Shown here: piece by piece, positions 2,556 to 36,400 of the stretch
Layout: each line of letters opens with the position of its first letter
How positions within the stretch are numbered: position 1 is the first letter of the stretch
Origin: Caldisericia bacterium
GTDB taxonomy: Bacteria > Caldisericota > Caldisericia > UBA6126
Length of the DNA: 64,000 bases
Direction of reading: 5' to 3'
Assembly (NCBI GenBank): GCA_028700655.1
Contig: JAQVSG010000001.1
Location: forward strand, 40,507 to 104,506
Position numbers and translations under genes: made by a program
The notes under the pieces: model-generated
Told to the model about the DNA's origin: nothing
What the model saw: the letters and a program-made list of their open reading frames with translations, nothing else
Database searches by the model: none

Positions 2556-2587
2556 AGAAGTACCTTTTCCTATATTTGGAGGCTCTC

Positions 2588-9232: not shown

Positions 9233-9244
9233 GAGTATAGAGGA

Positions 9245-10669: not shown

Positions 10670-10720
10670 ACCAAGAAGTGTATCAAAAAAAGTGGAAAGG
10701 AAGAATTTTTTCCTGATATC

Positions 10721-10728
10721 TGTATAAT
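10721..10728 (+). promoter_or_regulatory. Candidate -10 box (TG-TATAAT) for a possibly leaderless GAF-gene transcript
   Basis: TGTATAAT at 10721-10728, with TATAAT at 10723-10728. The ATG at 10736 starts 8 nt after the hexamer. There is no Shine-Dalgarno sequence in between, and the -35 is poor. Confidence 0.3.
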
Positions 10729-10735
10729 ACTTATC

Positions 10736-11215: not shown

Positions 11216-11277
11216 CTTCTTTTCATTGCTTCCAATGTTCTCCTATGTTTCGTTCTTCTTTTTTTCTTTTTTTTCTT

Positions 11278-11306
11278 TGAACCTTTTCCACCCCTTACCC
11301 TATTAT
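11278..11306 (+). promoter_or_regulatory. Candidate ECF-type (autoregulatory) promoter upstream of the ECF sigma gene
   Basis: TGAACC (11278-11283), a 17-nt spacer, then TATTAT (11301-11306), 65 nt upstream of the sigma ATG. The same bipartite motif occurs at 22458-22487. Confidence 0.4.
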
Positions 11307-11370
11307 GAGTAGAAAACATAAGGCAGGTAAAGTATGAAATTGATCTTATCAGGGTTGATGAAGTAGTGTC

Positions 11371-18800: not shown

Positions 18801-19317
18801 ACGTCTGTCTGTGGTAGATGGGAAATTTATGACGCAGTTTACCTGTACAAGTGGTATTAATGCTCTTGAGTTTATTGCAACGGATCTGTCTGGAAATGCA
18901 ACAAAGGCAATTGTTCCTGTGCAATACTACGAGAATTTCTGGGTACAATTCTCGATAGGTCAACAAATTGCCTCTTCCTCTATGGGAACACTGAATTTGG
19001 GGTCACCTATTTTTTTACAATCGTCTCATACTATGATTCCTTTAACTGTTTTTACATCTTTATTAGGCTGTGAAGTTGAGTACGAGCCCATTTTTCAAAT
19101 CATCACTGTGAGCAATCCTGATGGCAAAGTTATTCAAGCTCAAATTGGCAATACCACTGCCACTGTGAACGATGAAAAAAGAATTCTCCCAACTCCCCCT
19201 GTAATTCGCAATGGACGAACCTTCATTCCACTTCGATTCTTCGCTGAAGAATTCGGTTTTGTTGTACACTACATCAAAGAACAAAATGCTGTCAAAATGG
19301 AGTATCATGAGAGCTAA
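15832..19317 (+). CDS. Secreted surface protein: Big_2 domain, five FP-NP modules, shared C-terminal cassette
   Basis: 1,161 aa. The ATG overlaps the upstream stop as ATGA. Signal peptide MKSIRLF...LIPLYAKAAV. Big_2: RIEVSPNVQCIKIGESVTFTATAYDENG. Exit hallmarks: RVQNPRGGACY, AGITNPTSSDQY, FGLTNPTSVGRY, AGLRNPVTPGEY, AGFVNPSQEGAY. CuAO-N: VIRNGRTFIPLRFFAEEFGFVVHY. Confidence 0.9.
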   Translation: MKSIRLFTKIRTVFFVVLFVFTTLIPLYAKAAVTRIEVSPNVQCIKIGESVTFTATAYDENGSVVPEATFRWYQEGPGTGSPSSNTRSYTFRATSSGQVQMFVSSGDTKLVFRFDVGATQVRDVQIRVEPNTAGELANYTVMFYTDECGKLSPGDKIYLAFPYGTTFARYSGCDAVTVNGIPASYYVETDKNDNQIVSITVPNSYPDTTLVYIRICRVQNPRGGACYRMAAATSKQPYWALSNSYAIVGSIITTPTVEVAPDIVGEIAAYTIRFETSSTGRLGSCYGGYIMVEFPYGTKVPTTIAAEHILVNGQYCNDADPVINGRVVKIYPGMVVLEESDVKVEFLLEAGITNPTSSDQYRLVVWTNADNTRVNSNYYKIRNSVIQDVKVWIDKPYINTKSEWRITFQTGLVGRMRENGIITIYFPSSVRFPESSVPGDIKVNGVPTTKPAIIEGAGTLKIQTPVLFEAQSPVEIVIKEEFGLTNPTSVGRYTIKAHTGKEGTNVESQEFEIGPSMIGDLSVRIGSPFVSVNTSIQLTFTTGGGGQLTSDNGQVYLIMPQGMYIPNTMAKDSVLINNVPMKTTPFLKKAENRIILNVPIDIGPEAVVTVDFLQEAGLRNPVTPGEYIFRVATNREVSYISSPKIWIQESRVQNVSVDVLSRTVEQPASLHISFKTGPAGFLSAGEKIFVFLDTRFQFPTDYQHGILFNEINVDLFPVFLKPSEGMIQITLHENIEPLETVVIQITPEAGFVNPSQEGAYTLGVSTQSETQTVASEPFSIIPLPKTNITIEPTFPDGDNQWYVSKPNISFDVYSQEPESIQTWFSLNGEDWILYQETLVLSSGIYEIRYYSTQGDAKEEIQSIPIKIDTFPPYIQLPEGPIFTNQPIYPFSVTIVESHFLKGMIGEHEVLSLVEGQMKANLRLEEGDNEFSILVYDEAGHRSETTVVIVLDQTPPTLQISKPSPWQKTIRKTIPIDGYTESNVDVTLNGKRLSVVDGKFMTQFTCTSGINALEFIATDLSGNATKAIVPVQYYENFWVQFSIGQQIASSSMGTLNLGSPIFLQSSHTMIPLTVFTSLLGCEVEYEPIFQIITVSNPDGKVIQAQIGNTTATVNDEKRILPTPPVIRNGRTFIPLRFFAEEFGFVVHYIKEQNAVKMEYHES

Positions 19318-21142
19318 CTTCCTATATTCCTTGGCTTTTTTATGTTATGGAATCACATTTTTCCTTTTTATTCGTTTATTGATATGGAAAAAACTAAGTA
19401 AAAAATACTACTGGACAGCAAAATCGAAACTTTCACTTGCCGATGTAAAGATGATATCAGCTTTTGAGGACATACCACTTCCATTCATTTCTATTATGAT
19501 CCCTGCGAAAAACGAAAGCGCTGTCATCCGACACACTATTCACAATGCTATACACTTGAGTTATCCATCCCATCGATATGAGCTGCTTGTTATTGTAGAT
19601 GAAAGAGAACATATTGAAAATGAGAAGAGAATTGAAAAAGTATGGGAAGAAATTACCAAATGGAGAAAAGAAGTTGGGAATTCTCAACCATTTGATAAAA
19701 GAAGAGTAGATTTTTCTTTTAAATCCATTTCGAAAGAGTTACAACAAGCTGTATTGATGTACAAAATGAAGCATCTGTTATGGGGTCCTTTTTACCATGA
19801 ATTGTATGTAGAATTTTCGTCGACACTTTCTTATACATCCGATCCCTCTGTTTTGCATGCTCTGAAATGTTCTCTAGAAGAAGCGTTAAAGAAAATGCCC
19901 TACACTCGAAAAGATGTCAAAAAATGCTTAATGATATCCTTACAGAAAGCATTTCCCTCGACAGAACGTGTGGTTCTAAAGAAGATGATGTTGAAACTGG
20001 AAGAGACTATTTATTCTTTTGTGCATACAATTTCTATTCACGAATTGCAAGATATTACAAGAGACGACGTAAGAGATGCCTTTCCCACCACAAAGTCTAT
20101 AGCAGAAGATATGATGGAAGATGCTTCCAAACAAGGTGTAATGTTGAAGGTTGTTTCGGTTCCTACGAATTACACAGGCGTGTATCCTCGAACCTATACA
20201 AATCAGAATACCCATTCTACAAAAGGAAGAGCTCTAAATTATGCCCTAGACGAGGTAGATTCTTTGACAGATATAGTCGGGTTTTACGATGCCGAAAGTC
20301 GCCCGGACCACTCAGTTCTTCTGCACGTCGCCAAAGTATATTTGCAAAAGAAAGAAAACCTTCCCATTCTACAAGGACCTCTTTACCAAGTCCGAAACTA
20401 TTATACAATGGGTCTTGTTTCGCGCATTGGAGGTCTTTTTAAGGCCGTATCCCACGAGTGGTATCTTCCTATCATTTTTAAAAAAGTTCCGTTTGTAGGG
20501 GGTACCAATCTATTTGTTTCGAAAGCACTGCTGTTCAAAATTCACGGTTTTAACCCCGAGGCTTTAACCGAAGACTTGGATCTTGGGATTCGAGCCTATA
20601 TGATGCATAACGTTCATGTAGAGTTTCTGCCCGTGATTTCTACAGAGCAGACTCCTCCTTTTTGGAGTCAGTTTTTTAAACAACGATTGCGTTGGGCTTC
20701 AGGTCACCTGCAAGTGATGAGTGAGATACGAAAGACACACCGTGAATTATACTGGCAGTTGTTCTGGAAAGGACCTTTTGAGTGGGTTTTATACCAATTT
20801 TCTGCGATTGTTGTCATTCTTATGAATATCGGGTTTATAGTGTCTAAAATGGGGTGGATTCCAAAACAAATGATTCCTGTTAACCCTGTTTTACAAATGG
20901 TTCTTTTATTTATGAACATTCCTTACATTTTTTTCTCTTTTTACTGTTTTTATCACTACCAGTTCACTTTTGAAAAACATTTTCTATCACTGGATTCTTT
21001 TCCAGGAATGGAATGTATAAAACTAGTTTTATCGAGTGTGCTGGTGTTTCTTCTTCCTCTGCCCTATATCTGGGCGTTGATTCTTCACATTCTCGATAAA
21101 AAACCTAAAACCTGGGTGAAAACCCCAAGAACCTGTGAATAA
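19307..21142 (+). CDS. Membrane-bound processive family-2 glycosyltransferase, paralog of 9245..10669, with a large internal insertion
   Basis: The track start is 19211. I prefer the ATG at 19307 (MRANFLYSLAFLCYGITFF, a TM segment right after the start), which overlaps the upstream gene by 11 nt. 19286 is an alternative start. Motifs: IMIPAKNESAVI, STKGRALNYAL, FYDAESR, QRLRWASG, ending TWVKTPRTCE. Confidence 0.8.
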   Translation: MRANFLYSLAFLCYGITFFLFIRLLIWKKLSKKYYWTAKSKLSLADVKMISAFEDIPLPFISIMIPAKNESAVIRHTIHNAIHLSYPSHRYELLVIVDEREHIENEKRIEKVWEEITKWRKEVGNSQPFDKRRVDFSFKSISKELQQAVLMYKMKHLLWGPFYHELYVEFSSTLSYTSDPSVLHALKCSLEEALKKMPYTRKDVKKCLMISLQKAFPSTERVVLKKMMLKLEETIYSFVHTISIHELQDITRDDVRDAFPTTKSIAEDMMEDASKQGVMLKVVSVPTNYTGVYPRTYTNQNTHSTKGRALNYALDEVDSLTDIVGFYDAESRPDHSVLLHVAKVYLQKKENLPILQGPLYQVRNYYTMGLVSRIGGLFKAVSHEWYLPIIFKKVPFVGGTNLFVSKALLFKIHGFNPEALTEDLDLGIRAYMMHNVHVEFLPVISTEQTPPFWSQFFKQRLRWASGHLQVMSEIRKTHRELYWQLFWKGPFEWVLYQFSAIVVILMNIGFIVSKMGWIPKQMIPVNPVLQMVLLFMNIPYIFFSFYCFYHYQFTFEKHFLSLDSFPGMECIKLVLSSVLVFLLPLPYIWALILHILDKKPKTWVKTPRTCE

Positions 21143-21264: not shown

Positions 21265-22455
21265 ATGCGAATAGATCGATTTAAGGAACGGGACATTTTA
21301 AAACAAGTTGAACCGTATCGTGAATCGAAAGAAGCAGTAATTATCACAGGTATGAGGAGGACCGGGAAGACTACTCTTTTACAGTATTTATTCGAGACAA
21401 CGGAATCAGAGAACAAGCTTCTACTAGATTTAGAAAATCCGTTAAATCGAAAGTATTTTGAAGAAGAGAATTTTGATAAAATACAGGCTTCTTTAGAAAT
21501 TCTCGGTATAAATTTTAGTGAGCCTTCGTACATTTTTTTGGATGAGATCCAGCTATTTAAGAATATTCCGAGTATTGTGAAGTATTTTATTGATCACTTC
21601 CAAACGAAGTTTTTCTTAACAGGATCAACAAACTACTATACAAGGAAGCAGTTTGAAGAATCGTTGGCTGGTCGAAAGGTTGTATTTGAGCTATATCCTC
21701 TTACCTTTAAAGAGTTTATAAAATTCAGTGGAAAAGGTTTGAATCCTCCCACCCAAAAAAGTAGTATTTCCAGGCCCATTTTCGAAAAACTTTCTACTTT
21801 GTACGATGAATATATTATGTTCGGGGGGTTTCCCGAAGTTGTTCTGAAGCAAAGTGTTACGGAAAAAAATGCTGCTTTGGACGATATATTTCGATCGTAT
21901 TTTAATCTAGAAGTTGTGCAAATGAGCAATTATCGAAAAAGTGCTGTTATCCGTGATTTAATGCTTCTTCTTATGAACCGAGCCGGGGAGAGAATTGATG
22001 TTCAGAATATTTCGCAGGAGCTTGGAATATCCAGAGCTACTACGTATTCTTATCTGGAATTCTTGGAAGGCTCCTATTTCATTAAACTTCTCAAGCCCTT
22101 TAATCTAGGATCTAAAATGGAGATTCGGAAATCGAACAAAATCTATATTTGTGATGTAGGTTTGGTTCGTCATTTTGCCCACGCGGCAGAAGATTGTTTG
22201 TTCGAGAACAGTGTTTTTCAAAATTTGCGCACAAAATGTGATATAAAATATTATGAGAGAAAAAGTGGTACACAAATACATTTCATTTGCGATGATCAAA
22301 ACAATAAAGTAGCCTACGATACAGCACTTCACCCTCGCAAGACAGACCTAACAAGACTGTCTAGAATTGCTAGTGAAATCAATGTTGATGAGTATTCTAT
22401 CATCTCAAAATACTATTGTGATTTAGAACACACAATGTACGGCTTTATGGTGTAA
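21265..22455 (+). CDS. AAA+ ATPase with a DUF4143-type C-terminal domain
   Basis: 396 aa. Walker A ITGMRRTGKTTLLQYL, Walker B YIFLDEIQ, and a C-terminal region typical of the AAA_14/DUF4143 family. It looks more AT-rich by eye than its neighbours (not computed). Confidence 0.8.
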   Translation: MRIDRFKERDILKQVEPYRESKEAVIITGMRRTGKTTLLQYLFETTESENKLLLDLENPLNRKYFEEENFDKIQASLEILGINFSEPSYIFLDEIQLFKNIPSIVKYFIDHFQTKFFLTGSTNYYTRKQFEESLAGRKVVFELYPLTFKEFIKFSGKGLNPPTQKSSISRPIFEKLSTLYDEYIMFGGFPEVVLKQSVTEKNAALDDIFRSYFNLEVVQMSNYRKSAVIRDLMLLLMNRAGERIDVQNISQELGISRATTYSYLEFLEGSYFIKLLKPFNLGSKMEIRKSNKIYICDVGLVRHFAHAAEDCLFENSVFQNLRTKCDIKYYERKSGTQIHFICDDQNNKVAYDTALHPRKTDLTRLSRIASEINVDEYSIISKYYCDLEHTMYGFMV

Positions 22456-22457
22456 CA

Positions 22458-22487
22458 TGAACCATTTGTATAACAAATCCGTATTAT
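22458..22487 (+). promoter_or_regulatory. Candidate ECF-type promoter upstream of the giant-protein genes
   Basis: TGAACC (22458-22463), an 18-nt spacer, then TATTAT (22482-22487). This can also be read as TGAACC-N16-CGTATTAT. It lies 41 nt upstream of the ATG at 22528, with AAAGGAGG at 22513-22520. Confidence 0.4.
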
Positions 22488-22527
22488 ATGAAATTCACGA
22501 GTTTCCTGCACTAAAGGAGGAACGACT

Positions 22528-25500
22528 ATGAAAAAAGGAATAGCCTTTATTGTCGCTTTTGTGTTAGCTCTTTCTCAGTTTGGTTTCTATACAGCCGTTA
22601 ATGCAATACATGCTATTGATGTTCTGGTTGTAAACCAAAGTGGCACAGACGATGTAGCCACAGGAGAAATTTCTGAATATACAATAGATTTTACTTTGGA
22701 TGAAGATGTAGCTCTTGATGATGTCATCAAGATCAAGTTTCCTACAGGTACCTCTTTTGTGAATGCAACCATCGACAAATCCAATGTTTTTGTGGACGGT
22801 ACCAATCCTACAAAAGATGCTACAGCATCGGGTACGATTCTTAGTATTCACACCCCTGCTGCCTACTCTGCGGGGGATATAATTTCTATCAATCTGCCCA
22901 TTGAAGCAGGTGTAAAAAATCCTTCCACCCAAAGCGGAAAATACAAACTGCAGGTGGGTACCTTTTTAGGGCCTAACGGGACAACGACCATCGAAAATTA
23001 TGACCAGTACTCCAACAATTACTATATTGGCCATCGATCGGAAGTTACGATTAGCCCCTCCGTAGATCCAAATTACAACACAGCAGGGGTTAAAAACATC
23101 AAAGAATTTGTAACGTGGACCATAAAGTGGAAAACTGGTAATCAGGGACACCTCACGGCTGGTAGCGATACAATAACCCTTGATTTTACTGGGAATACGA
23201 ACACTTTTCCAAAGCCAGATGGATGCTTTGACAACGGTTCTGGTGTTTATTTTATTCCGGCCACTTACATTCAAATTAACTCCAAAACACTAAAGAGTTC
23301 TGCCACTGCAACATTAAGCGGAGTTGCCCCAAACCAAACTCTTGATACAATCACCTTCACGATTCCCAATACACTTAGTGATATTTCTGCGAACGCAACC
23401 GTTACTATTATTCTGACCAATCAAGTAGGTATGTTTAACCCTCCCGCTGGGGATTATACTATCAAAGTAAATTCCAGCCGAGAAACAACCCCCATCTCGT
23501 CGCAGACAATTGCTGTTAATGATGCCGTATCATTTTATGATTTAGATGCCGTAAAAGCAGGTGTTCAGGGAGTTGTTGTAGATCCTCCCACAACGTCTAC
23601 CGTTGCCTCCTTCCAAATGGGAATCATTAACGACATCCCACTGTCCGTTGGCGTAGGTACAATAACCTTTGCCATGCCCATGACCATGACAGGAGTTCGC
23701 AACCCACCCATTACAGCAGTCCAATTTGAACATTCGATAGACGCTGGTGTAACCTGGGTTGAAACAACGTTAAAAACAGCTCCTATATTTACGGGTAGCA
23801 ATGTTGTTGTGACCGTTCCTTTAGATATTCCAGCCAACAGTCCTATCCGTGTTACTCTCACAAAAGATTTGAACATTAAAACACCCACCACCGCAGGCGC
23901 TTATAGTGTGCAAGCCATGACCTCGGCCCAACCCTATTACCGGAATTCTCCCACTTTTGCCATTGGTACAGGTGTATCGGGTGTAAAAGTAATTCCTTCT
24001 CCTGCCACCGATGATTCTGAAAATGTTCAGTATGTTGTTGAATGCAAATTAGGACAAAGTGGTGCTTTGTATAAAAGCACAGGGAAAATTTTTGTGGAAT
24101 TATTCCTCGGCAACGATCCTTTAACTTTCGATGGCATCACATTGTCCAATGGTTCTGTTTTCCTTGGAACTGGACAATATACAACCATTCCAACAGAAGT
24201 GGAAAGTCTTGGGGCAGGGATCTTTAAGTTTACGGTGTCTCCTCCACAAGACCTAAATGCCGGTGCCTCTGTAAAAATAACATTTAAACCCTCTGCAGGA
24301 TTCGTGAATCCTATTGCAGGTACATATAAAGGTATTGTTTACACCACGTCTGAGATGCTAGAATCCGAATCCGAATCGTATGAAATCCAAGATGCTATCA
24401 TGGTGGATGCGATTGATGTAGATCCTACCGCTGCAGGCGTAGATGCTGAATACACAATTACTGTGAGTATTGATGATAATCTTACCAAAAATATAGATAC
24501 TATATCTGTTGCTTTTCCTCAAGGACAAAGGCTTCCTACCACTATAACCCCGGGCGACATTTCCGTGGATGGTGTGGATGTCATATTATCCCCCAAGGTT
24601 TCCTCCAATGTCCTCACTTTTCATGTACCTATTGATATTCTCGCTGGTCCAACCTTTGATATTGTTTTGAAAAAATCTGCCAAAATTAAGAACCCAACAA
24701 CCGCTGGTATTTATAGACTGCAAGTAAATACATCCAAGCAAATTGCCTATCGCCTGTCCCCTCCCTTTAATATTGGAACCTCCGTAACGGGAATTGAAGT
24801 AATACCCTCTCCCGATACTGCCAACAGTGCCAATGTACAATACACAGTCAAATTCAAAATTGGTACCAACGGAGCGTTAACCGCAAACTCAGGCGATTTC
24901 ATATCCATTCAGTTACCCTTAGGAGAATTGCCAACGGCAGGCGCTTCTTCCATTACTGTGAACAATGATCGATGTATTGAAAACCCCACTATTACGGATC
25001 TTGGAGGAGGATTGTACGACCTTGAAGTGTATCCTCCCAAAGATTTGCGATCGGGTTCTCTTGTAACAGTAGTGTTTACAACTTCTGCTGGACTAAAAAA
25101 TCCGACGGAAGGAAACTATCGAATTACGGTCTTTACGAATAAAGAACCCATTCCTATGCAATCCGATATTTATTTAATCAAAAATGCCGTTGTCATCCAT
25201 TCTGTGGATGTAGAACCACCCGCTACAGGGGCAGAAGCAGAATACACAATAAGTATCGATATTGGGAAAAAACTGACAAAAGATATCGATACAATTACCA
25301 TTTCTTTTCCTCGCGAATCACGAATTCCTACCTCCATTAACAAGGGAAGTATTTCTATCGAAAACGATGGGGTTGTAAGAGATTTAACCCTTCCACCCAC
25401 CGTATCCAGTACTAGCATTACTCTAAAAGTTCCTGTAACCTATGATCCAACTCTCCCTGGGGCAGATCCTACTTTAATCATTGTTGTTAAACAATCTGCC

Positions 25501-28500
25501 AAAGTTCAGAACCCATCCACAGCTGGCATTTATACACTCCAAATATTGACGTCTTCGCAACCCTACTATCGAGTATCTCCCAATTATGCAATTGGTACTG
25601 CTGTAACCGACTTTAAAATTACGCCAAATCCAAAGTCCAAAAATACAGTAGATGTACAGTATAATTATGAGTTCAAAGTAGGTGCTAGCGGAGGGCTTAC
25701 GAAGAATGCAGATGAAATACATATCATCCAAAAAGTTGGTACCGCTGCTCCTCTTCCTATGCTACTACCAACATCGTCTGTAACTGTGAATGGAAAATAC
25801 ACTCAAGTTGCCACCGAAATCATTGAACCTACAAGTCCTCTTTATCCACCGGCGGCAGGATGGGTAGAAATTATTCTCCAAGTTCCCGAAGATATTCGAA
25901 ATAGCGGTACTGTAAAAATTGTGATAATGTCATCTGCAGGGCTTATTAACCCCACTGCTGGCAATTATAAGGGCGTGATATGGACCGACCAAGAGCCTAT
26001 TGCTGTTGAATCTGAATATTATCAAATTGAAGATACAATTCTGTTCTTAGGTCCTGTTATCGTAACTCCTCCTTCTGTGGGGCAGATTGCTGAATACGAA
26101 GTAAGTCTTCACTTGGATTTGGGCTTGCAAGCCAATCAAGGAACCATTACACTTGCTTTCCCAAGTGGAACTAAAGTCAATCGAACCATCCCCACCACAG
26201 GAATTACCATACAAATTGGTGCCGGTCCCGAACAAAATCTAAACATTGCTCCTCAAATATCGGGGACAAATATTACCATAACAACACCTTCCAATATTCC
26301 GGATGCAACCGATATTGTTCTTCGATTTAAAAAGAATGCAGGGGTAACAAACCCTACCACTGCGGGACTGTATCGACTGCAAGCAATGACCTCTTCACAG
26401 CCTTATTATGCCTTGTCCGAGTATTATGCAATCGGTAGTTCTATTACCGTTTTTGAAGTTACTCCTATGCCTAATAATATTGGTGGAGAAAGAGTTGTAT
26501 ACGTTGTCAAAATGAAAATCGGAGCCAATGGATTAATAGCAAACGAAGACCAGATATTCCTTAGCTTACCACTCGGTGCTCCTGCTGGAGCAGGCACTTT
26601 GCAGCCTAGCACAATCACTGTAAATGGTGAATTTACAACTCTGTCAACAAACTACCAAATTGATCCAACGTATGGTCCTCCCTATATCCAATTTGAAATA
26701 CCCACTCCTGTGGATGTGAAAGCGAATGCAGAACTCACGGTTGTTTTCTTGGAGTCGTGTGCCCTTACAAATCCTCTTACCGAAGGGATAAAATTTGGAT
26801 ATGCACACACTTCACAAGAAGATATTGAGATTAAGTCAAATCTTTACAATATTGTTGATTCTGTTGCTTTTCCAGGTATTAACCCACCTCTTGATATGCG
26901 ATCTGTGATCCCCAAATCCAACGGAATTTCTTTATCTGCTCAATATATGGTGCATTTCGTTACGTCACCTACGAAACCTCAACTCACGCAAAACTTAGAT
27001 CGTATCCATATTGTATTCCCCGATGGTACCACCGTACCATCCAGCATATCTCCAGGATCTATCTATATATCCACTGCCCCTATTTGGGGACCCGGAGACC
27101 CTGATTCTCTTACCTGTCCTCCACCCGTGGGAACAATTTTGAATCAATCCGTTACCATTACAGGACAAGAAGTATCCTTCCCTGTTCCCTTTACAGTTGC
27201 TCCTGGTTCCAATGTATATATTCTGTTTTGTAAAGATGCAGGACTGAAAAATCCTTCTAAACCACAAATTTACAATCTTTTGGTAAAAACGTCCACACAA
27301 CCCAACTATGGTATTTCACGTAACTACATTATTCGATCTACCATAACTCCTCCCGAAGTTTTCCCAGATCCACCTGTCATCAATCAAAATGCAGAATACA
27401 CAGTGCAGTTTACTCTTGGCGAAAGCGGTGCTATTACTGCAAACAATGATGATTTGTTTATAGGTTTTAACGGAGATGATTATCTAACTCCCGTAGGCAA
27501 CCTAGCTCCCTCCTCTGTGAAAGTGAATGGTGTGTATTGTACAACGTACTCCATAGTTACTGCAGGACCTGCTCTGCCGGGCAATGTTGACAATGCCCCT
27601 GGTTGGAACTTATATCGGTGGATACGAATACAATCACCAGTACATATAGAAAAAAGTTCTCAAGTAACCATTGAATTTTTACAGAGCGCCGGGTTTACTA
27701 ATCCCGCCGTTTCCAACAACTACACATGTATTGCATGGACCAATAAAGAACCCATTGCTATAGAGTCTTACCAATACACAATTGGTGATGCCGTACAAAG
27801 TTTGGAAGTACCCGCTACGCATCCCAACCCCAAAACAACTGGATCGTTTGCAGAATACCTTATTGAATTTGATCTTGGTGCAGATCCAGCTTCTCAATTG
27901 TATGCCAATACCAGTTCTATATCGGTCGAATTTCCAGAAGGTACAGCGGTTCCTTCCTATATCAACCCCGCCAATATTAAAATTGGATTTGGTGCTGTGT
28001 GCAATCCAACATTTTCTTCCGTACCTCCCATTACTGTTGAAGGGAATACCGTTACGTTCCGCGTTCCTGTTAATATTCCTGCGGGAGAACATGTTTGTGT
28101 GAAGTTTGAAAAGGGTTCTCAAATTGCCAATCCACAAGAACCAGGCTCTTATCAGTTAAAACTAAAAACTTCTTCACAACCAATTGCGGCCATTTCCAAT
28201 TACTATTCGATTCTTTCTACAAGCAGCATTCCTAGAGTTTCTGCAGCCCCACCTGCCATTAACGCCAAAAACGTTGCTTATGAAATACGTTTTAATACCG
28301 GAATCAATGGCAATATGCTGAAGGATACGGAAGACATAGTGATCGTGTTTGACCCAGCGTATATAGGAGACTATACCGTTGGTTTTGATCCCAACCCCTC
28401 TCCTTACCCAGCATTGACAACATCCATACCGCAAAATTCTGTCTATATCAATGGTATTGTGTTGAGTTCCATTCCTACTGTTGTCAATGATGCGGGAGAA

Positions 28501-31500
28501 TTAAAGTATATTAAACTGATTACTCCCGTTGATATAAGTGCAGAATCAGAAGTAGTAGTACAAATTACCAATATTGCAGGAATAAAGAATCCACCCACCG
28601 TGGGTCTGTATCGTTTGGCTGTGTTAACGTCTGTTGAGCCAACTCCTGTAGAGTCTCATGCTTTTAGCTTATTCTCTTCTGTTGGTGCTATTACTGTAGA
28701 GTTGGCCAAAGATGGTTTTGTAGAACCTGCGTTTCCTCCTGCCCCTGACCCAAGAGGTGCAACGCCAAATACGAATGCAGAATACATTATTCATTTCTCT
28801 ACCGGACCCTCGGGAAATTTGGTAAAAGATTTAGGAGCTATCACAATTGCTTTTCCTTATGATACCAAGCTACCCTCATCCATTTTACCAGGCTCTGTAC
28901 GATGTAAAATTACAAATACTATTCTTGGTGTTACGTTCGATGGGACTTTGTCACAAGCTCCCGTTGTTAACCAAGAAACCAATGAAATTGTGATCCGTGT
29001 TCCCGATGATGTTGAAGCCACAGATACTGTTGAAATCCGTTTTACAGAACTTGCCAATATTAAGAACCCGACACAATCTGGTACCTATTCCTTGGAAGTA
29101 TCTACTTCTTCAGAACCATTGTTAGTCCGATCCGATCCTTATTCAATTCTCGGACTATCGGCTGCGGACGTTTCTGTAGAACCTTGTTTACAACAACTAA
29201 CAGGTGCTGTAGTCAGTATCAATTTTACGACTGTGAATGCTTTAGCCATTGGAGATACTATTGACATAGAGTTTCCTTATGGTACTCGATTACCCTCTGT
29301 TATCGATGGAGATTTTGTAACCGTAAACAATCATCCTGCAAATATTGGGGCGTATCCCCAAGTGCAAGTTAATCAACAAATTGTATCGATCAAAGTACCC
29401 GAAGTCATTCAAGCATTGTCTACGGTACGGGTAGTATTTATTGAAAAAGCTCGTATACAAAACCCTTCCACTGGAATGTATTCTTTAAAAATCAAAGCGG
29501 GAGCAACAGATCCTGATCACCGATGGGTACATTCTAAAGACTACTTCATTTGTGGCGATTTTACATTGTATGCTGCCGAAATGATCCCTGATACTTTACT
29601 ACTCGGAAAGGGTCAAAGAAAACAGCTTGAAGTAATATCCTATGATGAAGATGGCAACGAGATACCAGCGGCTGGACTATCGTATTACTGGACAACGCAA
29701 GGGAATGCAGGTAGTTTAACAGATATAACGAAGAACAAAGCTACCTTAGTAGCCTCTCAAACGTCCGGTAGCGGTACGGTACAATGCGCTGTTACGTTTG
29801 GGAATACAACCATACAGGTAAGCGCTTCCGTTACCGTTTCTTCCACCACAGCACAATTGGTGATAAATCCTACGAGTGCCTCGATGTCTATTGGCGATAC
29901 AAAAACCTTTACCGCAGGAGCTTATAAACAAGATGGTAGTCCTCTTAACCTCACCTATAGCTGGAGGTTGGAAGGTGAATCCACCGGGACGTTGTCTCCA
30001 ACAACGGGACAAACAACCACGTTTACTGCTTCTTCTGCAGGAACCTCCAAAATTATCGTTTCTGCTACCTATGAAGGAGAAAAGCTTGAAGCGACTGCCA
30101 ACGTTACGGTTTCGGACAACGGAGGGCCTGGTCCTGGACCAGGCGACCAAGCTCCTATCCAAGCAACAATAACTCCAACAAGAGTGAATGCAAATCAAGG
30201 CGATGTTAACTTCAATTTTACGTTTACATCGGTGGCTGATATTTCGAATGGAACCATTGAGATCACTATTCCCTCTGGTTTCCCAGATCCTACCACAGCC
30301 CCTGGATCACAAGGTTATATAGCTGCATTGGCAGGAACAGGTGTGAATATTTCCAACCCTCCCAATATTCAAGGCAGAAAAATAATCTTTACAGTCATGA
30401 GTATGTCCATACGAAAAACATTCACAATGTCGTACTCAAAAGTATCTGCTCCTTCGACACCTGGTGAGTATATTTTCCAAGTACAAGGAAAACAAAACCA
30501 GGACAGTACCCTTGTGTCTGTAGAGGAACCTCCTGAAGTACTCGTTGTTTCAGTTGCTGACGGAAGTGGAAGAGCCAGTATTAATCCAAATCAAGCTTCC
30601 TCTGGAGCAACAGGGCAGCGATTCGAAATCTCCTATACCGCTGATGCACCTATGGACAGTGGAGCTGTACAAATCATCGTTCCACAGGGTTTCTCCAGAC
30701 CCTCTCTATCGTCCACTGCAGAAGGGTATGTTCGTCTAAAAGAGGATTCTCTAGACTTCGCGAATTCTCCCGAAGTGTTGGGCAATATCATTACTGTCCC
30801 TATTATGTCAATGGGTGTAAACGATAAGCTAACGATTATTTACGAAAATGTACGAATTCCTGCCCAACCCAATGTGTATACCTTTGTTGTCAAAAGCAAG
30901 GGGATGGGAGGCAGTTTTGTAGAGATTCCTTCAAGCCCCTCTGTCAATGTTAGCAATACAAGAATTTCCGATGCAAAAGTGGAAGTGGATCCCAATCAAA
31001 CATCCATGCCTGCAGAATATACCATATCGTTCCGAACCTCTGGTACTGGCTCTCTTCTGAGCGGAAAAGGGACCATCGAATTCATATATCCTGCCCAAAC
31101 GATCCTTCCCGATTCCATAAAGAGTAGTAACATTACAGTCAATGGTGAAGTCGTTACCTTACCACCCAATGTGGAATCTGTACGTAGTAAAATTACAATC
31201 ACTGTACCCAAAGATATCCCTTCGAATACCTTAGTGATTGTAAAATTTAGCATTGAAGCCAACATTGTGAATCCAGCAAAACCGGGGGACGAATACAAAA
31301 TATCCATTACTACCTCTTCCGATACCATACAAACATCAACAGATCCCTATACCATTGTTGTTTCAGAGCTTCGAAATATCAAAGTAGAAGTTTCTCCCAT
31401 ACAACCGGCTGCCATTGCAGAATATACAATTCGAATGAAAGTAGGAGGCGCGGGGGCTTTAAGTGTAAACCAAGACTCTATTACTGTCATCTTCCCGTCC

Positions 31501-33366
31501 GACACAGAATTGCCTTCTTCTATACCAGCGAATGCAATTCTTATAAATAGTACTCCCTTAATGACGCGACCTCAAGTTGACCTTGCACAGCGGAAAATCA
31601 TTATGGCTCTTCCGGTACGAATTGAAAATGACACTGACGTCAACATTGAGATAAAAACAGCTGCAATGATTAAAAACCCCACAAGGGATGGCATGTACAA
31701 ACTCAAAGTCTTTACATCCAAAGAAACCAAGCAAACAGAATCGGAAGCGTATCAAATTGGGACCTCACTTCTGGGTGATATCCGAGTATCTCTCTCTTCT
31801 CCTTTGGTGGACGAACAAGATGTTACCTATACCGTTCAGTTTAGAACCGGTGGATATGGACGCATTGAAGTGGGAGAAACCATCACGGTTACCTTTGATA
31901 GCCGCTACAATTTAGGGACTATTCAGTCTCACCATGTCACAGTAAATGGCGTTGTTTGTTCGGTGACTCCCGAAGTATCTGAAGGTGTTTCGGTTATTAT
32001 TAAATCACCTATTGCAATCGATGGAGAAAGCAATGTAACAGTCACTATTAGCAATATGCGTAACCCCTCGATATCCGGAGAGTATACCGTATCCGTATCA
32101 ACCCAAGCGGAGCCTATGCCCGTCGTATCGACTCCTTATACAGTGGGCATGATTCTGACCACAGAAATTACCGTCAATCCTTCTTCACCAAATGGTCTTT
32201 CGGGATGGTATAAAATTGCCCCCAATATTCTTTTCAACAACGACGTGGCGAGTGCTAAGATATTCTATGCATGGGATGAAGAACCCTTCCAGCGCTATAC
32301 AGGTTCAGCTATTACAGCGCCAGAAGGGATCCATACACTCAATTGGTATTCTGTTGCAGAAGGATTTTCCGATGAATCCAAGCAAGATATGCAGTTTAAA
32401 GTAGATACAAAAGCTCCTGAAGTGCATGTTAGCGAACCTAAAGATGGGGCTGTTTTGAACGAACCGCAAGTGAAAGTTGCAGGTGAGGTCTATGAAAACA
32501 ACTCCTTCACCGTAACGGTGAATGACAGACCAGCGACCCTAACAGAAAAACGCTTTACTTCAATTGTGTCTTTGAATCCAGGAGACAATTTGATTGATAT
32601 CATCGCCATTGATGAGGCTGGAAACCGAAGTGTTACACCTCGAATCCGCGTTAAATACGTGCAACCCTCCGATATCAAATTCAATATTCAATCTCCTCAA
32701 AGCCTATCGTCTGTATATCCCATTTTAGAAAAAGTAGATGACGAAAGACGGTTAATTGCAACCATTCCTATCCAAGGGAAAATAAATCCATCCACTGCCG
32801 ATACTGTGAACATTATCATCATGGATTTGATGGACAAACCTGTCACTCTACCCATCGACACAGAGGGTGTTTTCAAAGGCGACGTAAAAATGCCTGTAAT
32901 TGCTGGATTAAATGGGATTGTTTTTTCTGTCAAGGATCGTATAACAGGAAAAGAGTATTCCTCTTCTGCAACTGTGATTGCAAAGGTCATGATTGAATTG
33001 CAAATAGGGAATTCATTAGCCTTTATCAATGAACAAGAAAACAAATTGGATGCACCTCCCTATATCAAAGATGGCAGAACAATGCTTCCCATGCGATTTA
33101 TTGGAGAAGCCATTGGAGCTACCGTAGGGTGGATACCCGACAGCAAAACTGTTGTATATGACTTTGATACCATTCATATTGAACTGCAAATCGGTAGTAC
33201 AGAATCTCTAGTAAAACGCGGAGAAACGTCTGAAAAAATTGTCATGGATGTAGCTCCCGAAATTAAGAATGGTAGAACTTTTGTTCCGCTACGTTTTGTA
33301 ACAGAAACCTTAGGAGCTGAAGTGGAATGGATTCCAGAAACGAAAACTATAAAGGTTTCCAAATGA
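22528..33366 (+). CDS. Giant secreted surface protein (3,612 aa): 16 FP-NP modules, 2 Big_2, GPGPGPG linker, 2 divergent modules, 3 FP-NP modules, OmpL47-like, Ig-like domains, CuAO-N pair
   Basis: Uninterrupted ORF with a strong RBS. Signal peptide MKKGIAFIVAFVLALSQFGFYTAVNA. Repeated exit hallmarks such as SAKIKNPTTAGIYRLQVNTS and SAGLKNPTEGNYRITVFTN. C-terminal APPYIKDGRTMLPMRFIGEAIGATVGW and EIKNGRTFVPLRFVTETLGAEVEW. Confidence 0.93.
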   Translation: MKKGIAFIVAFVLALSQFGFYTAVNAIHAIDVLVVNQSGTDDVATGEISEYTIDFTLDEDVALDDVIKIKFPTGTSFVNATIDKSNVFVDGTNPTKDATASGTILSIHTPAAYSAGDIISINLPIEAGVKNPSTQSGKYKLQVGTFLGPNGTTTIENYDQYSNNYYIGHRSEVTISPSVDPNYNTAGVKNIKEFVTWTIKWKTGNQGHLTAGSDTITLDFTGNTNTFPKPDGCFDNGSGVYFIPATYIQINSKTLKSSATATLSGVAPNQTLDTITFTIPNTLSDISANATVTIILTNQVGMFNPPAGDYTIKVNSSRETTPISSQTIAVNDAVSFYDLDAVKAGVQGVVVDPPTTSTVASFQMGIINDIPLSVGVGTITFAMPMTMTGVRNPPITAVQFEHSIDAGVTWVETTLKTAPIFTGSNVVVTVPLDIPANSPIRVTLTKDLNIKTPTTAGAYSVQAMTSAQPYYRNSPTFAIGTGVSGVKVIPSPATDDSENVQYVVECKLGQSGALYKSTGKIFVELFLGNDPLTFDGITLSNGSVFLGTGQYTTIPTEVESLGAGIFKFTVSPPQDLNAGASVKITFKPSAGFVNPIAGTYKGIVYTTSEMLESESESYEIQDAIMVDAIDVDPTAAGVDAEYTITVSIDDNLTKNIDTISVAFPQGQRLPTTITPGDISVDGVDVILSPKVSSNVLTFHVPIDILAGPTFDIVLKKSAKIKNPTTAGIYRLQVNTSKQIAYRLSPPFNIGTSVTGIEVIPSPDTANSANVQYTVKFKIGTNGALTANSGDFISIQLPLGELPTAGASSITVNNDRCIENPTITDLGGGLYDLEVYPPKDLRSGSLVTVVFTTSAGLKNPTEGNYRITVFTNKEPIPMQSDIYLIKNAVVIHSVDVEPPATGAEAEYTISIDIGKKLTKDIDTITISFPRESRIPTSINKGSISIENDGVVRDLTLPPTVSSTSITLKVPVTYDPTLPGADPTLIIVVKQSAKVQNPSTAGIYTLQILTSSQPYYRVSPNYAIGTAVTDFKITPNPKSKNTVDVQYNYEFKVGASGGLTKNADEIHIIQKVGTAAPLPMLLPTSSVTVNGKYTQVATEIIEPTSPLYPPAAGWVEIILQVPEDIRNSGTVKIVIMSSAGLINPTAGNYKGVIWTDQEPIAVESEYYQIEDTILFLGPVIVTPPSVGQIAEYEVSLHLDLGLQANQGTITLAFPSGTKVNRTIPTTGITIQIGAGPEQNLNIAPQISGTNITITTPSNIPDATDIVLRFKKNAGVTNPTTAGLYRLQAMTSSQPYYALSEYYAIGSSITVFEVTPMPNNIGGERVVYVVKMKIGANGLIANEDQIFLSLPLGAPAGAGTLQPSTITVNGEFTTLSTNYQIDPTYGPPYIQFEIPTPVDVKANAELTVVFLESCALTNPLTEGIKFGYAHTSQEDIEIKSNLYNIVDSVAFPGINPPLDMRSVIPKSNGISLSAQYMVHFVTSPTKPQLTQNLDRIHIVFPDGTTVPSSISPGSIYISTAPIWGPGDPDSLTCPPPVGTILNQSVTITGQEVSFPVPFTVAPGSNVYILFCKDAGLKNPSKPQIYNLLVKTSTQPNYGISRNYIIRSTITPPEVFPDPPVINQNAEYTVQFTLGESGAITANNDDLFIGFNGDDYLTPVGNLAPSSVKVNGVYCTTYSIVTAGPALPGNVDNAPGWNLYRWIRIQSPVHIEKSSQVTIEFLQSAGFTNPAVSNNYTCIAWTNKEPIAIESYQYTIGDAVQSLEVPATHPNPKTTGSFAEYLIEFDLGADPASQLYANTSSISVEFPEGTAVPSYINPANIKIGFGAVCNPTFSSVPPITVEGNTVTFRVPVNIPAGEHVCVKFEKGSQIANPQEPGSYQLKLKTSSQPIAAISNYYSILSTSSIPRVSAAPPAINAKNVAYEIRFNTGINGNMLKDTEDIVIVFDPAYIGDYTVGFDPNPSPYPALTTSIPQNSVYINGIVLSSIPTVVNDAGELKYIKLITPVDISAESEVVVQITNIAGIKNPPTVGLYRLAVLTSVEPTPVESHAFSLFSSVGAITVELAKDGFVEPAFPPAPDPRGATPNTNAEYIIHFSTGPSGNLVKDLGAITIAFPYDTKLPSSILPGSVRCKITNTILGVTFDGTLSQAPVVNQETNEIVIRVPDDVEATDTVEIRFTELANIKNPTQSGTYSLEVSTSSEPLLVRSDPYSILGLSAADVSVEPCLQQLTGAVVSINFTTVNALAIGDTIDIEFPYGTRLPSVIDGDFVTVNNHPANIGAYPQVQVNQQIVSIKVPEVIQALSTVRVVFIEKARIQNPSTGMYSLKIKAGATDPDHRWVHSKDYFICGDFTLYAAEMIPDTLLLGKGQRKQLEVISYDEDGNEIPAAGLSYYWTTQGNAGSLTDITKNKATLVASQTSGSGTVQCAVTFGNTTIQVSASVTVSSTTAQLVINPTSASMSIGDTKTFTAGAYKQDGSPLNLTYSWRLEGESTGTLSPTTGQTTTFTASSAGTSKIIVSATYEGEKLEATANVTVSDNGGPGPGPGDQAPIQATITPTRVNANQGDVNFNFTFTSVADISNGTIEITIPSGFPDPTTAPGSQGYIAALAGTGVNISNPPNIQGRKIIFTVMSMSIRKTFTMSYSKVSAPSTPGEYIFQVQGKQNQDSTLVSVEEPPEVLVVSVADGSGRASINPNQASSGATGQRFEISYTADAPMDSGAVQIIVPQGFSRPSLSSTAEGYVRLKEDSLDFANSPEVLGNIITVPIMSMGVNDKLTIIYENVRIPAQPNVYTFVVKSKGMGGSFVEIPSSPSVNVSNTRISDAKVEVDPNQTSMPAEYTISFRTSGTGSLLSGKGTIEFIYPAQTILPDSIKSSNITVNGEVVTLPPNVESVRSKITITVPKDIPSNTLVIVKFSIEANIVNPAKPGDEYKISITTSSDTIQTSTDPYTIVVSELRNIKVEVSPIQPAAIAEYTIRMKVGGAGALSVNQDSITVIFPSDTELPSSIPANAILINSTPLMTRPQVDLAQRKIIMALPVRIENDTDVNIEIKTAAMIKNPTRDGMYKLKVFTSKETKQTESEAYQIGTSLLGDIRVSLSSPLVDEQDVTYTVQFRTGGYGRIEVGETITVTFDSRYNLGTIQSHHVTVNGVVCSVTPEVSEGVSVIIKSPIAIDGESNVTVTISNMRNPSISGEYTVSVSTQAEPMPVVSTPYTVGMILTTEITVNPSSPNGLSGWYKIAPNILFNNDVASAKIFYAWDEEPFQRYTGSAITAPEGIHTLNWYSVAEGFSDESKQDMQFKVDTKAPEVHVSEPKDGAVLNEPQVKVAGEVYENNSFTVTVNDRPATLTEKRFTSIVSLNPGDNLIDIIAIDEAGNRSVTPRIRVKYVQPSDIKFNIQSPQSLSSVYPILEKVDDERRLIATIPIQGKINPSTADTVNIIIMDLMDKPVTLPIDTEGVFKGDVKMPVIAGLNGIVFSVKDRITGKEYSSSATVIAKVMIELQIGNSLAFINEQENKLDAPPYIKDGRTMLPMRFIGEAIGATVGWIPDSKTVVYDFDTIHIELQIGSTESLVKRGETSEKIVMDVAPEIKNGRTFVPLRFVTETLGAEVEWIPETKTIKVSK
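23530..29570 (+). repeat. Protein-level tandem array with alternating A/B module subtypes (di-module period about 270-310 codons); limits approximate
   Basis: The NP hallmark codons start at 23881 (KTP variant), 24307, 24691, 25099, 25510, 25948, 26350, 26770, 27250, 27700, 28129, 28588, 29065 and 29461. The repeats are diverged at synonymous sites. Confidence 0.8.
29559..30117 (+). other. Two bacterial Ig-like group 2 (Big_2) domains inside the 3,612-aa protein
   Basis: MIPDTLLLGKGQRKQLEVISYDEDGNEIP...YYWTTQG...GTVQCAVTFGNTTIQVSASVTV and LVINPTSASMSIGDTKTFTAGAYKQDGSPL...YSWRLEG...SKIIVSATYEGEKLEATANVTV. These are followed by GGPGPGPGD at 30121-30146. Confidence 0.75.
32982..33363 (+). other. 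C-terminal pair of CuAO-N-like repeats (putative envelope anchor)
   Basis: IELQIGNSLAFINEQENKLDAPPYIKDGRTMLPMRFIGEAIGATVGWIPDSKTVVY and IELQIGSTESLV...APEIKNGRTFVPLRFVTETLGAEVEWIPETKTIKV. Confidence 0.85.
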
Positions 33367-33409
33367 CGACTTGTTGTAAAGTTTACTCCTACAACGAAGG
33401 AGGAAGGAC

Positions 33410-36400
33410 ATGAGCGCGAAAAAGATCATTAGTTTGTTGTTAGGATTTATGGTAATGTTCTCTATGGTTTCGGTTGGGTATTCCAGAATCACTACTTTTG
33501 TAAATGAACCCAACCCGAATACTGCAGGGACTCCTGCTAATCATACTTTAAAATTTACGAACACAGAAGAAATCCCTTTGGGAGGTCGTATTGAGATAGA
33601 GTTTCCCTCTGCTTTCGATTTATCGACTTTATCCATGGGAGCTCCTTTTGATGAGACAGATTTTGTGGTTACTTTACAAAAACCAGCAGCTTCTCCTACT
33701 CCTCCCGTTGTAAAGCCTGGATCTGTTATGCGTGATGGAAAGAAGTTGTCTTTTGAAATCGGCGACTCTAAAGTAGATCCTGGTTTTCAGAGAATTGAAA
33801 TCATCAATACAAAAATATTGAATCCCCCTACCCCAGGAAATTACACCATTCTACTACGAACCTACGATACGGCTGCGAATGGTCAAAGGCAGATTGAGTA
33901 TGCAACGTCTTCTCAATTTGAAATTGTAACAGAGATGAATCGTGCTTCTGTATACCCAGAACCAAACCGAGCGGGAGAAAGAGCCAAATACACAATTCGT
34001 TTCAAACTTGGAACGGGAACGAGTAGAAGTCTGTATGCTGGAGATCGTATTCGTATTCAGTGGGATGCCAATCTTGTACCCGGAGGCGATCCTACTAACG
34101 CTACGTTTATCCAAGCTCCCATTCCCAAAGAGTCTGTTACCGTAAACGGAGTGCATCCGCAAGTCGATCCACAATTTATCTCAGAAGGAATTCCAGAACC
34201 AAATCCCACAGGAAGTTTTTGTGAGATGGATGTTATTCTACCCAATAACATTAGTACGTCTTCTTCGTATGCTCCTGAAATTGTGATTGTGTTTGATCAA
34301 TCGGCAGGGATTATTAACCCCGATGGAGAATTGGACAATCGTACGATTGCAATCAGTGTCTACAGAAGCGATGGAATAACAGTGGTAGAGCCTGCTCTTG
34401 AATCCAATGCTTATTCTCTGAAAACATCCCTATTTGTTCCGGCTGTTTTTGTACAACCTGATAAAACAAATGCAGTCGCGGAATATCATGTTGCTTTCAA
34501 AGTAGGAGAGCAAGGGAAACTGATTGCGAATTCAGGAAAAATAACCGTTGAATTTCCTTCCGAAACCATTGTTCCCTCCACAATATCTGCATTTAGCATA
34601 AAAAATGCTTCTCCCCCTCCTGCTGTTGAACCTGTATTGCCCTATGCTGGTGGTACGGCAAACGCTCCTTATGATCCTCAAATCACAGGAAACAAGGTTT
34701 CTTTTGTGGTCCCAGAAACAGTTATGCCTGGTCAATACGTGTGTTTTATTTTTAAAACCGATGCAGGCATTCGCAACCCTGACAGAGAAGGTATTTATCA
34801 TTTAAAACTTTCAACATCGGCCGAACCTTCTGTGGTAACATCGCAGAATTATCGAATCCAGGGTTATAGTACAACAAGTGTTACCGTGGTTCCTAACAAA
34901 TCAGAAGAAGAAGCCGAATGGGATATCCGTTTTAAACTTGGATCTTCTGCTGGGTTGTATACATTTAACAACGATACTATTGCCATTACTTTTCCTCAAG
35001 GAACAGGTCTTCCTGCCATTGATATTCCTGCTGGGGATATCACCATCAATGGCGTTGCAACGACAGCACCAGCTGTGGTTACTCCGGCTACAAGGCAGGT
35101 TACCATCCTAGTACCGCAATCGATTGAACAAGGTTCCAATGTTGTAGTACGCTTTAAAAAACAAGCAAAAATAAACGTCCCCACCATTGATATAACCCCC
35201 AAATATTTTACGTTGAAAATTGTAGTTTCGACCGAAACAGATCCCTACATATCCGACCCTTTTGAAGTGTATACATCCATTGACAATCTGGTTGTATTAC
35301 TAAACGATCCAGGGGTTGGTGTTGTTTCTCAACAACAGGTTTCCTTTACACTAGGAGATGTGGATGAAGGATTGAAAGCCAATGAAAGCATTACGTTTGA
35401 GTATCCCGCAGGAACCAATATCCCTACTTTTGTCAATGCAGGGAATATTCGAATCTTGAACGTAACTTCTGCTGTGGAAATGAATCCATCGTCGGTACAA
35501 GCAAGTGGTCAGAAGATTAAAATTACTTTACCCACGACATTTCCTACTATTTTAGAGAAAGATCCTGTGCGTGTTACCTTCTTATCAAGCTGTGGTATTA
35601 CCAACCCAACCGAACCGGGATCCTATACTCTGAAAGCCTATACTTCGAAAGAAACCACGCCGGTTCAATCCGAATTCTATACGATTGGTACTGTCTCTGG
35701 AGCAGTTCAAATTTTCGTAGACCCAAAAGCATCTGGGTATTGTATCCCACAACCTACCATCCCCAAAAACAATAAAGGAGCAGAGTATACCATACAATTC
35801 CTAACCGGATCTAGTGGTGGTATCTCCAACGGTCAGTATGTGACAGTTGTATTCCCTCCTTCGTATGCCACGATTTTTAATACCAACTATCCGGCTCCTA
35901 CCAATATCATTCCTTCTGGTACCATTATGATCAACGATCAACCTGTAACCATGGGATCAAATATTGTGGATGCTCCTGCTTCCTATCCTCCTGGTTCCAA
36001 AATGGTTCAAATTCCTTTGCCTGTTTCAATTGGAACCAATGAAAAAGTGTCGATTCGATTTCTAGAATCAGCCGATATTGACAACCCTGTTGTTACAATC
36101 ACTCCGCAACCTTTTACTATCCATGTATTTACAGCCACAGAATCCTCCGCTGTATCGGGCACTTTTTATCTGTATTCTCAAATAGAAGGTATTGGGGGCA
36201 CGCCCATTAATAGCAATTTGCCCATCAATGTAACTTTATCGAATTATACCGCGGGGCGAGATTGCGGTATTGAGTTTGGTTTTAAAACTGGCCCAATAGG
36301 AGCTTTAAAAGCAAATTCCGATACAGTTTCTGTGATGCTTCCACAAGGCACACGACTTCCTTCCTATATCGCCTCTGGCACCATCGTGGTAGATCAAGAT

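Follow-up and report, generated by a model that had tools for sequence, protein, structure and literature searches.

Alternating A and B modules of a probable Ig-like surface rod in a giant Caldisericia protein

In a 64,000-nucleotide window of Caldisericia bacterium contig JAQVSG010000001.1, we analyzed an intact open reading frame (ORF) at positions 22528-33366 of the forward strand, whose translation is a modular protein of 3,612 residues, here called P1. We consider P1 to be probably a giant secreted surface protein with a semi-rigid, immunoglobulin (Ig)-like rod that arose from duplicated pairs of modules, A and B, with two kinds of junction between modules and divergence between neighbors. 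The protein is laid out as a putative signal peptide, 16 modules, an insert of about 470 residues, three further modules and a C-terminal anchor region. Its modules, each of 130-160 residues, were delimited in two independent ways: by cutting the sequence at position +31 relative to the NP of a recurring hallmark, and with a hidden Markov model (HMM) built from the modules. The latter found 19 modules, 16 of them N-terminal and three after the insert (Table 1).

The original prediction for this DNA had placed the N of the NP hallmark at 16 codons of the P1 reading frame and had described two module subtypes that alternate from the third to the fifteenth module (M03 to M15). All 16 positions were exact, including that of a KTP variant at codon 452, and the A-to-A spacings of 270, 273, 280, 300, 293 and 312 codons follow from them. 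The alternation was likewise confirmed. Clustering of pairwise Smith-Waterman comparisons split M03-M13 cleanly into odd-numbered A and even-numbered B modules; the A clade held M03, M05, M07, M09, M11, M13 and M15 and the B clade M04, M06, M08, M10 and M12, with M14 and M02 as weaker members of B and M01 as a weaker member of A. When subtype HMMs were applied, M01-M15 read as ABABABABABABABA, an alternation wider than the one first described. In a permutation test of M03-M15, the observed excess of same-parity similarity was reached in 11 of 20,000 shuffles. This frequency equals the floor of 1/1,716, meaning that none of the 1,716 possible parity splits is more extreme than the one observed. 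Consensus motifs agreed with those reported before, namely KxAxIKNPTTAGxYxLQxxTSSQPxYxxSxxYxIG at the exit of A, VxPxPxxxxxxNVQYxVxFKxG at the entry of B and SAGLxNPxxxGNYxxxVxTxxEPIxxESxxYxIxDAV at the exit of B. Subtype-specific conservation fell into three zones: the first strand (V.V.PP.....AEY in A; V.P.P.....NVQY.V.FK.G..GAL in B), a central segment, FPxGTxxPxxI, conserved in A only, and the last ~40 residues. The central region of the B modules is variable and rich in insertions.

A and B are two subtypes of one domain, homologous and complete; alignment of the two profiles with hhalign gave a probability of 99.3% over 126 columns. For structure prediction, AlphaFold2 was run on M05-M06-M07, with an input alignment whose 14 rows were A-B-A triplets, none of them overlapping, taken from the window and from its homologues. 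The resulting model was all-beta and free of low-confidence segments, with a predicted local distance difference test score (pLDDT) of 93.3 and a predicted template modeling score (pTM) of 0.72. About three residues separate the last strand of one module from the first strand of the next, and linkers overall span 3-4 residues. A second model, of M13-M15, was also all-beta (pLDDT 88.4, pTM 0.68) and contained one 12-residue low-confidence loop (model residues 304-315) just past the first strand of M15. If the three domains tumbled independently, a far lower pTM would be expected, and the values were therefore read as a predicted fixed inter-module geometry. The original prediction is supported at the level of the models, in which the A-B-A segment appears rod-like, with no low-confidence linker in M05-M07, rather than as beads on flexible linkers. 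The sole segment with a pLDDT below 50 in either model is a Pro-rich insertion, GFVEPAFPPAPD, at 28714-28749 (P1 residues 2063-2074), which could be a hinge or a plain surface loop.

Foldseek searches of the PDB with the tri-module model returned integrin legs and surface proteins with tandem Ig-like arrays; the best matches were the tandem Ig-like (DEv-IgG, CnaB-like) domains of MSCRAMMs, antigen I/II (C123) and PrgB. The E-values ranged from 1e-9 to 1e-5, but TM-scores were only 0.2-0.28 and identities 9-13%, and these matches assign the modules to the class of Ig-like sandwiches but to no narrower group. Domains with isopeptide or ester cross-links, which the MSCRAMM and pilin matches suggested, were rejected as candidates: no Lys or acidic residue is conserved, a Gln is conserved in subtype A only, and the isopeptide triad of CnaA/CnaB (Lys, Asn/Asp and a catalytic Glu/Asp) is not conserved across the 36 modules examined. 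Only N107, P108 and S129 are conserved in at least 90% of these modules. The NP..G.Y hallmark sits in the loop ahead of the penultimate strand of the M05-M07 model, a placement that we take to resemble the E-F loop and tyrosine corner of fibronectin type III (Fn3) and Ig sandwiches. Most simply, the hallmark would combine the E-F loop with the tyrosine corner of a Greek-key sandwich and would stabilize the fold.

We then compared module boundaries by projecting the ends of the HMM matches and counting the residues left between them. At the A-to-B boundary, 48 of the 49 junctions in the window, its orthologues and larger homologues had no extra residue. The B-to-A boundary carried 0-16 extra residues, with values of 10, 0, 0, 1, 9, 3 and 16 in the window. 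Free spacers between A-B units were considered as an explanation and rejected, since the M13-M15 model places a strand directly after M14 and the extra residues within a loop of M15; they are now described as boundary-region insertions.

Close relatives of P1, with 83-93% identity, are present in metagenome-assembled genomes (MAGs) of Caldisericota/Caldisericia. One orthologue (L007) is 89.4% identical and colinear over all 3,612 residues, and two others (P0004 and L001, the latter on a JGI metagenome contig) are ~50% identical from end to end. In these three, from few genomes, the 16+3 modules are found in the same A/B order. The L001 orthologue (9170-20037) is divided among ORFs of 276, 698 and 2,640 residues by two frameshifts near 10000 and 12100; the flanking modules join in register at the breaks, and the split is either sequencing error or the mark of a pseudogene. 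A module-by-module matrix of the window against L001 revealed positional orthology for M1-M3 and M10-M19. M4-M9, however, resembled one another more closely inside each genome than across the two, always within subtype, and in L001 B copies are up to 76% identical to one another and 26% identical to their A neighbors. This within-subtype homogenization, which has a period of two modules, indicates that duplication or gene conversion took A and B together. The pair is therefore a real unit of evolution whose order and number are conserved in orthologues.

The repeats had also been claimed to be old and conserved at the protein level rather than a recent expansion or an assembly artefact. The codon strings cited in support, at 24691 and 26350, proved to be exactly as quoted, and among same-type modules of 34-53% identity the same codon was used at only 31-53% of identical residues. 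Neither Tandem Repeats Finder nor a direct-repeat search detected a DNA-level repeat longer than ~50 nucleotides. Because the codons differ and long DNA repeats are missing, we agree that the P1 repeats are old and no artefact. Assembly artefact and recent expansion were ruled out on the combined grounds of no DNA repeats, saturated synonymous sites and orthologues in independent MAGs.

To place the module in a family, we compared it with Pfam. P1 as a whole matched DUF2808 (PF10989) with 51.6 bits over two stretches (gathering cut-off 25.3). Single modules matched in 12 of 36 cases, all below the cut-off (best E = 1.1e-5, profile positions 22-128 of 146), and the P1 modules appear to be divergent members of this uncharacterized family. 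DUF2808 was also passed by the relatives P0130 (66.4 bits), P0016 (37.9 bits) and P0064. At E <= 1e-3, a profile of 36 modules retrieved 2,533 representative proteins, which carry as many as 26 modules apiece. Among them are a "T9SS type A sorting domain" protein from KSB1 and, from Tepidibacillus, a "copper amine oxidase N-terminal domain" protein. Pfam identified tails of the type IX secretion system (T9SS) or Cu_amine_oxidN1 type on family members, which makes the module a component of the stalks of secreted surface proteins from several phyla. Searching the PDB by sequence with the A and B profiles gave nothing meaningful (best E 0.73). In the papers searched, the only mentions of DUF2808 concerned hypothetical proteins of cyanobacteria, in which it is listed as a domain of unknown function, and a search on DUF2808, Caldisericota surface proteins and bacterial super-repeats yielded no prior description of the pattern or of a DUF2808-type module structure. 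We also surveyed the 70 family proteins with at least seven contiguous modules for parity, many of which are probably mutual orthologues, so that the counts are not independent. Even-lag similarity exceeded odd-lag similarity at p <= 0.05 in 36 and at p <= 0.01 in 13. P0064, which has a T9SS tail, is an independent strong alternator (26% identity between neighbors, 55% at lag 2); some family proteins repeat with period four; in distant 10-module T9SS proteins an A-like/B-like oscillation is present but weak; and P0130 is a homogeneous array whose neighbors are 74-87% identical. Near-identical tandem arrays such as P0130 and P0111 have the look of Periscope proteins.

We propose that the stalk of P1 would consist of 19 Ig-like beta-sandwich modules set head to tail on linkers of 3-4 residues, giving a contiguous rod that is presumably semi-rigid and that would be attached to the envelope, presumably through the C-terminal Glucodextran_B-like and Cu_amine_oxidN1 domains. 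M01-M15 would have arisen by tandem duplication of an ancestral A-B pair, now present in seven and a half copies, and later homogenization would likewise have acted on the pair. Two kinds of junction would result, an A-to-B junction that is never expanded and a B-to-A junction that tolerates insertions. As a rule, adjacent domains of multidomain proteins diverge from one another, a trait credited with limiting misfolding between domains (PMC8201768; PMC4660218). In P1, same-type modules are 24-53% identical and immediate neighbors 20-41%; under the proposed scheme neighbors would stay at or below 41% identity even as same-type copies two positions apart grow very similar, which would reduce inter-domain misfolding. 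Several points weigh against this reading. The contrast between subtypes is modest, mean global identity being 33% for A-A and B-B pairs and 29% for A-B pairs. Since all pairs of P1 modules are already at most 53% identical, avoidance of misfolding alone would not require strict alternation. P1 has same-type neighbors at M15-M16 and M17-M18, and together with homogeneous arrays such as P0130 these indicate that the fold needs no heterotypic partner. Rigidity is read from pTM and linker pLDDT, and the 14 rows of the alignment are largely paralogous segments. The 49 A-to-B and 48 B-to-A junctions are mostly orthologous copies, with an effective sample of about 7 + 7. Finally, the anchoring role of Cu_amine_oxidN1 is presumed.

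The original prediction had gone further and taken the functional unit to be a hetero-di-domain, with the alternating E and G5 domains of staphylococcal SasG/Aap as precedent. In its obligate form this would mean that A and B are structurally co-dependent, that specific, co-evolved interfaces at both kinds of junction provide stability and rigidity which either subtype alone would lack, and that the pair is the functional folding unit. Such an arrangement would account for the length of the A-to-B boundary, invariant across orthologues of ~50% identity and the larger homologues P0005 and P0006, and for the high pTM of the tri-module models. It is also consistent with the location of subtype-specific residues in the first strand and the last ~40 residues (E-F loop, F strand, F-G loop and G strand), which strand topology should put at module ends. 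However, every module is predicted with high pLDDT to be a complete sandwich, and A and B are homologous and equal in size, unlike E and G5. Neighboring A modules occur in P1 itself and in its paralogue P3, which lacks alternation, and the family contains homogeneous arrays. Although the weak oscillation in 10-module T9SS proteins and the parity signal (p <= 0.05) of 36 among the 70 family proteins favor a pairing, the former proteins are probably orthologues of one another and the latter count overstates independence. Given homologous, complete domains, A-A neighbors and homotypic arrays, a functional hetero-di-domain like E/G5 of SasG exceeds the evidence, and we regard obligate co-dependence as unlikely. 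The evolutionary A-B unit, the rod-like models and the constancy of A-to-B length speak for the original proposal; the pairing of two different domains of the E/G5 type is not supported.

That the alternation has no selective value, and is the frozen footprint of a two-module duplication whose repeats have become too diverged to recombine, was also considered. With no DNA-level repeat left, unequal crossing-over is now unlikely, and the positional orthology of most modules describes a static array. Homogeneous, period-two and period-four arrangements, moreover, all occur in the family. A purely neutral history nevertheless fits poorly with M4-M9, which were homogenized after the lineages split and always in A/B register, and with P0064 as an independent strong alternator. 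In addition, the asymmetry between B-to-A junctions, which have insertions, and A-to-B junctions, which do not, suggests constraint. We judge this history quite improbable, somewhat more so than obligate pairing.

The oscillation in T9SS proteins and the parity structure in 36 of 70 proteins are compatible with a broader idea, namely that the A-B pair is an ancient, cross-phylum building block of DUF2808-type rods (in Caldisericota, KSB1/T9SS-bearing bacteria and Firmicutes), with two co-evolved heterotypic interfaces setting stiffness and twist. We hold this to be doubtful. If true, the problem that SasG solves with E-G5 would have been solved once more, and independently, with two paralogous Ig-like domains.

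Similarities to known surface rods are instructive for the reading of P1 as a rod of duplicated A-B pairs. With SasG/Aap of Staphylococcus it has in common the strict alternation of two types, very short linkers and a contiguous, elongated surface rod. The E and G5 domains of SasG, in contrast, are of unequal length and form flat single-layer sheets, and E is unstable without G5, whereas A and B of P1 are homologous, full-size Ig-like sandwiches. SasG repeats are near-identical and variable in number, while same-type P1 modules share the 24-53% identity given above and their number is fixed at 16+3 across orthologues. The anchors differ as well (LPXTG in SasG, Cu_amine_oxidN1 in P1), and a Pfam scan of P1 at E <= 0.1 gave no match to the G5 domain. 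Interfaces between modules matter for the SasG array (summarized in PMC8201768). The Periscope proteins (Rib, SHIRT/Sgo_0707, CdrA) resemble P1 in projecting a rod-like stalk of short-linked tandem beta domains from the cell surface (PMC8201768). They are defined by repeats of high DNA identity, which P1 does not have, and by a variable repeat number, which was not seen in the few genomes available, and P1 keeps the rule of less than 50% identity between neighbors that Periscope proteins break. Lacking a G5 domain, and with repeats that are neither highly identical nor variable in number, P1 belongs to neither class. Super-repeats in surface rods of tandem beta domains are a well-known principle, of which P1 is a well-behaved and fairly ordinary example. 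Higher-order repeats that arose by duplication of multi-domain blocks also occur in the Ig/Fn3 super-repeats of the titin A-band and in the alternating FIVAR-GA modules of Ebh. These are unrelated to P1 in sequence and organism; the titin super-repeats comprise 7 or 11 domains and follow the thick-filament period, and Ebh modules are helical. Should A and B truly form one structural unit, P1 would offer a natural system for studying how neighbor divergence and heterotypic interfaces affect folding and stiffness in a long Ig-like rod, and also a route to the role of a widespread DUF2808-like domain found in at least 2,500 representative proteins.

Table 1. Features of P1 and its two multi-module paralogues, in window coordinates
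Feature	Position	Strand	Remarks	Basis
Putative Sec signal peptide, MKKGIAFIVAFVLALSQFGFYTAVNA	22528-22605	+		K-K, hydrophobic stretch and V-N-A in the translation, read by eye without a predictor
M01 and M02	22627-23529	+	weak A and weak B	HMM domains at residues 34-170 and 175-334; subtype scores
M03	23560-23976	+	subtype A; KTP variant of hallmark	
M04	23977-24399	+	subtype B	
M05	24400-24786	+	subtype A	within M05-M07 model
M06	24787-25191	+	subtype B	within M05-M07 model
M07	25192-25605	+	subtype A	within M05-M07 model
M08	25606-26040	+	subtype B	
M09	26047-26445	+	subtype A	
M10	26446-26865	+	subtype B	
M11	26893-27345	+	subtype A; 9 extra residues ahead, at B-to-A boundary	
M12	27346-27795	+	subtype B	
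M13	27805-28224	+	subtype A	within M13-M15 model
M14	28225-28683	+	subtype B; divergent by pairwise score	B by subtype HMM in all orthologues
M15	28684-29160	+	subtype A; 16-residue insertion near start	within M13-M15 model
M16	29158-29559	+	divergent, A-like; closes the alternation	
Non-module insert, ~470 residues	29560-30966	+	P1 residues 2345-2813	sub-threshold Pfam matches; translation
M17, M18 and M19	30967-32157	+	no alternation; each with a clear positional orthologue in L001	
C-terminal region	32158-33363	+	weak OmpL47-type barrel, Glucodextran_B-like Ig domain, Cu_amine_oxidN1	
Paralogue P2, 2,546 residues	33410-41050	+	12 modules; C-terminal domains as in P1	
Paralogue P3, 1,161 residues	15832-19317	+	5 modules, no alternation; C-terminal domains as in P1	

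Outside the modules, the Pfam scan of P1 identified a C-terminal Cu_amine_oxidN1 domain (PF07833) above the cut-off, with 110.2 bits over residues 3500-3609 (33025-33354), and Glucodextran_B with 38.1 bits. With this C-terminal PF07833 domain and an N-terminus that by eye resembles a signal peptide, P1 classes as a Cu_amine_oxidN1-tailed surface protein, and the domain is presumed to anchor it to the envelope. The insert contains weak Ig-like (PKD or Y_Y_Y) domains, two stretches weakly similar to BslA and a GGPGPGPG linker, along with a weak match to the module HMM at residues ~2548-2657. A gap of 467-475 residues is kept at the position of the insert in L007, L001, P0005 and P0006, and P2 is likewise interrupted at the equivalent place (residues ~1322-1752).

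The second giant protein, P2, had been said to show a comparable two-state pattern in its first seven modules. This held in part: M3, M5 and M7 of P2 are A-like, with a parity signal at p = 0.023, but M4 and M6 form a third subtype and are not B. These two modules (34868-35281 and 35741-36184) are reciprocal best matches, and their hallmark carries a short insertion (INVPTIDITPKYF, IDNPVVTITPQPF). Altogether the window encodes four secreted paralogues, with 1, 5, 19 and 12 modules (14135-15835, 15832-19317, 22528-33366 and 33410-41050, respectively), all of which end in Glucodextran_B and Cu_amine_oxidN1. Interleaved with them are two GT2 glycosyltransferases and an AAA_14/DUF4143 ATPase (9245-10669 on the reverse strand; 19211-21142 and 21265-22455 on the forward strand). 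The gene order is repeated in the L001 contig, and the region looks like a conserved surface-structure locus. Its four Cu_amine_oxidN1-tailed genes are flagged here in Caldisericota, a phylum with an unexplained outer envelope (PMC4104836).

The locus bears on one further explanation of the alternation, in which each subtype would have its own binding function, making contacts to a glycan, a neighboring rod or an envelope lattice, such that the ~280-residue super-repeat matches a periodic partner. The variable, insertion-rich center of B as opposed to the FPxGTxxPxxI conserved in A could be understood in this way, and the locus also encodes glycosyltransferases, besides three more paralogues that carry this anchor. 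Caldisericum exile, moreover, is reported to have an outer-membrane-like envelope and yet no BamA (PMC4104836), although a link between that envelope and the module proteins is speculation. Pfam scans, however, detected no ligand-binding family in the modules, and separate binding roles are pure conjecture that we consider very improbable.

Upstream of the paralogues, a 2,218-residue protein (2576-9232, forward strand) contains a gingipain-like peptidase C25 domain (141.7 bits), Cu_amine_oxidN1 domains and a weak PorU-like match; it is a possible surface protease with the same anchor as the giant proteins. Directly downstream of the surface-protein locus lies an ordinary nusA-infB pair (41946-44998). 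GC skew is negative throughout 22000-40000 of the window (-0.06 to -0.15), over both giant genes, likely as a consequence of the Thr/Pro/Ser/Asn-rich composition of the giant proteins rather than of replication.

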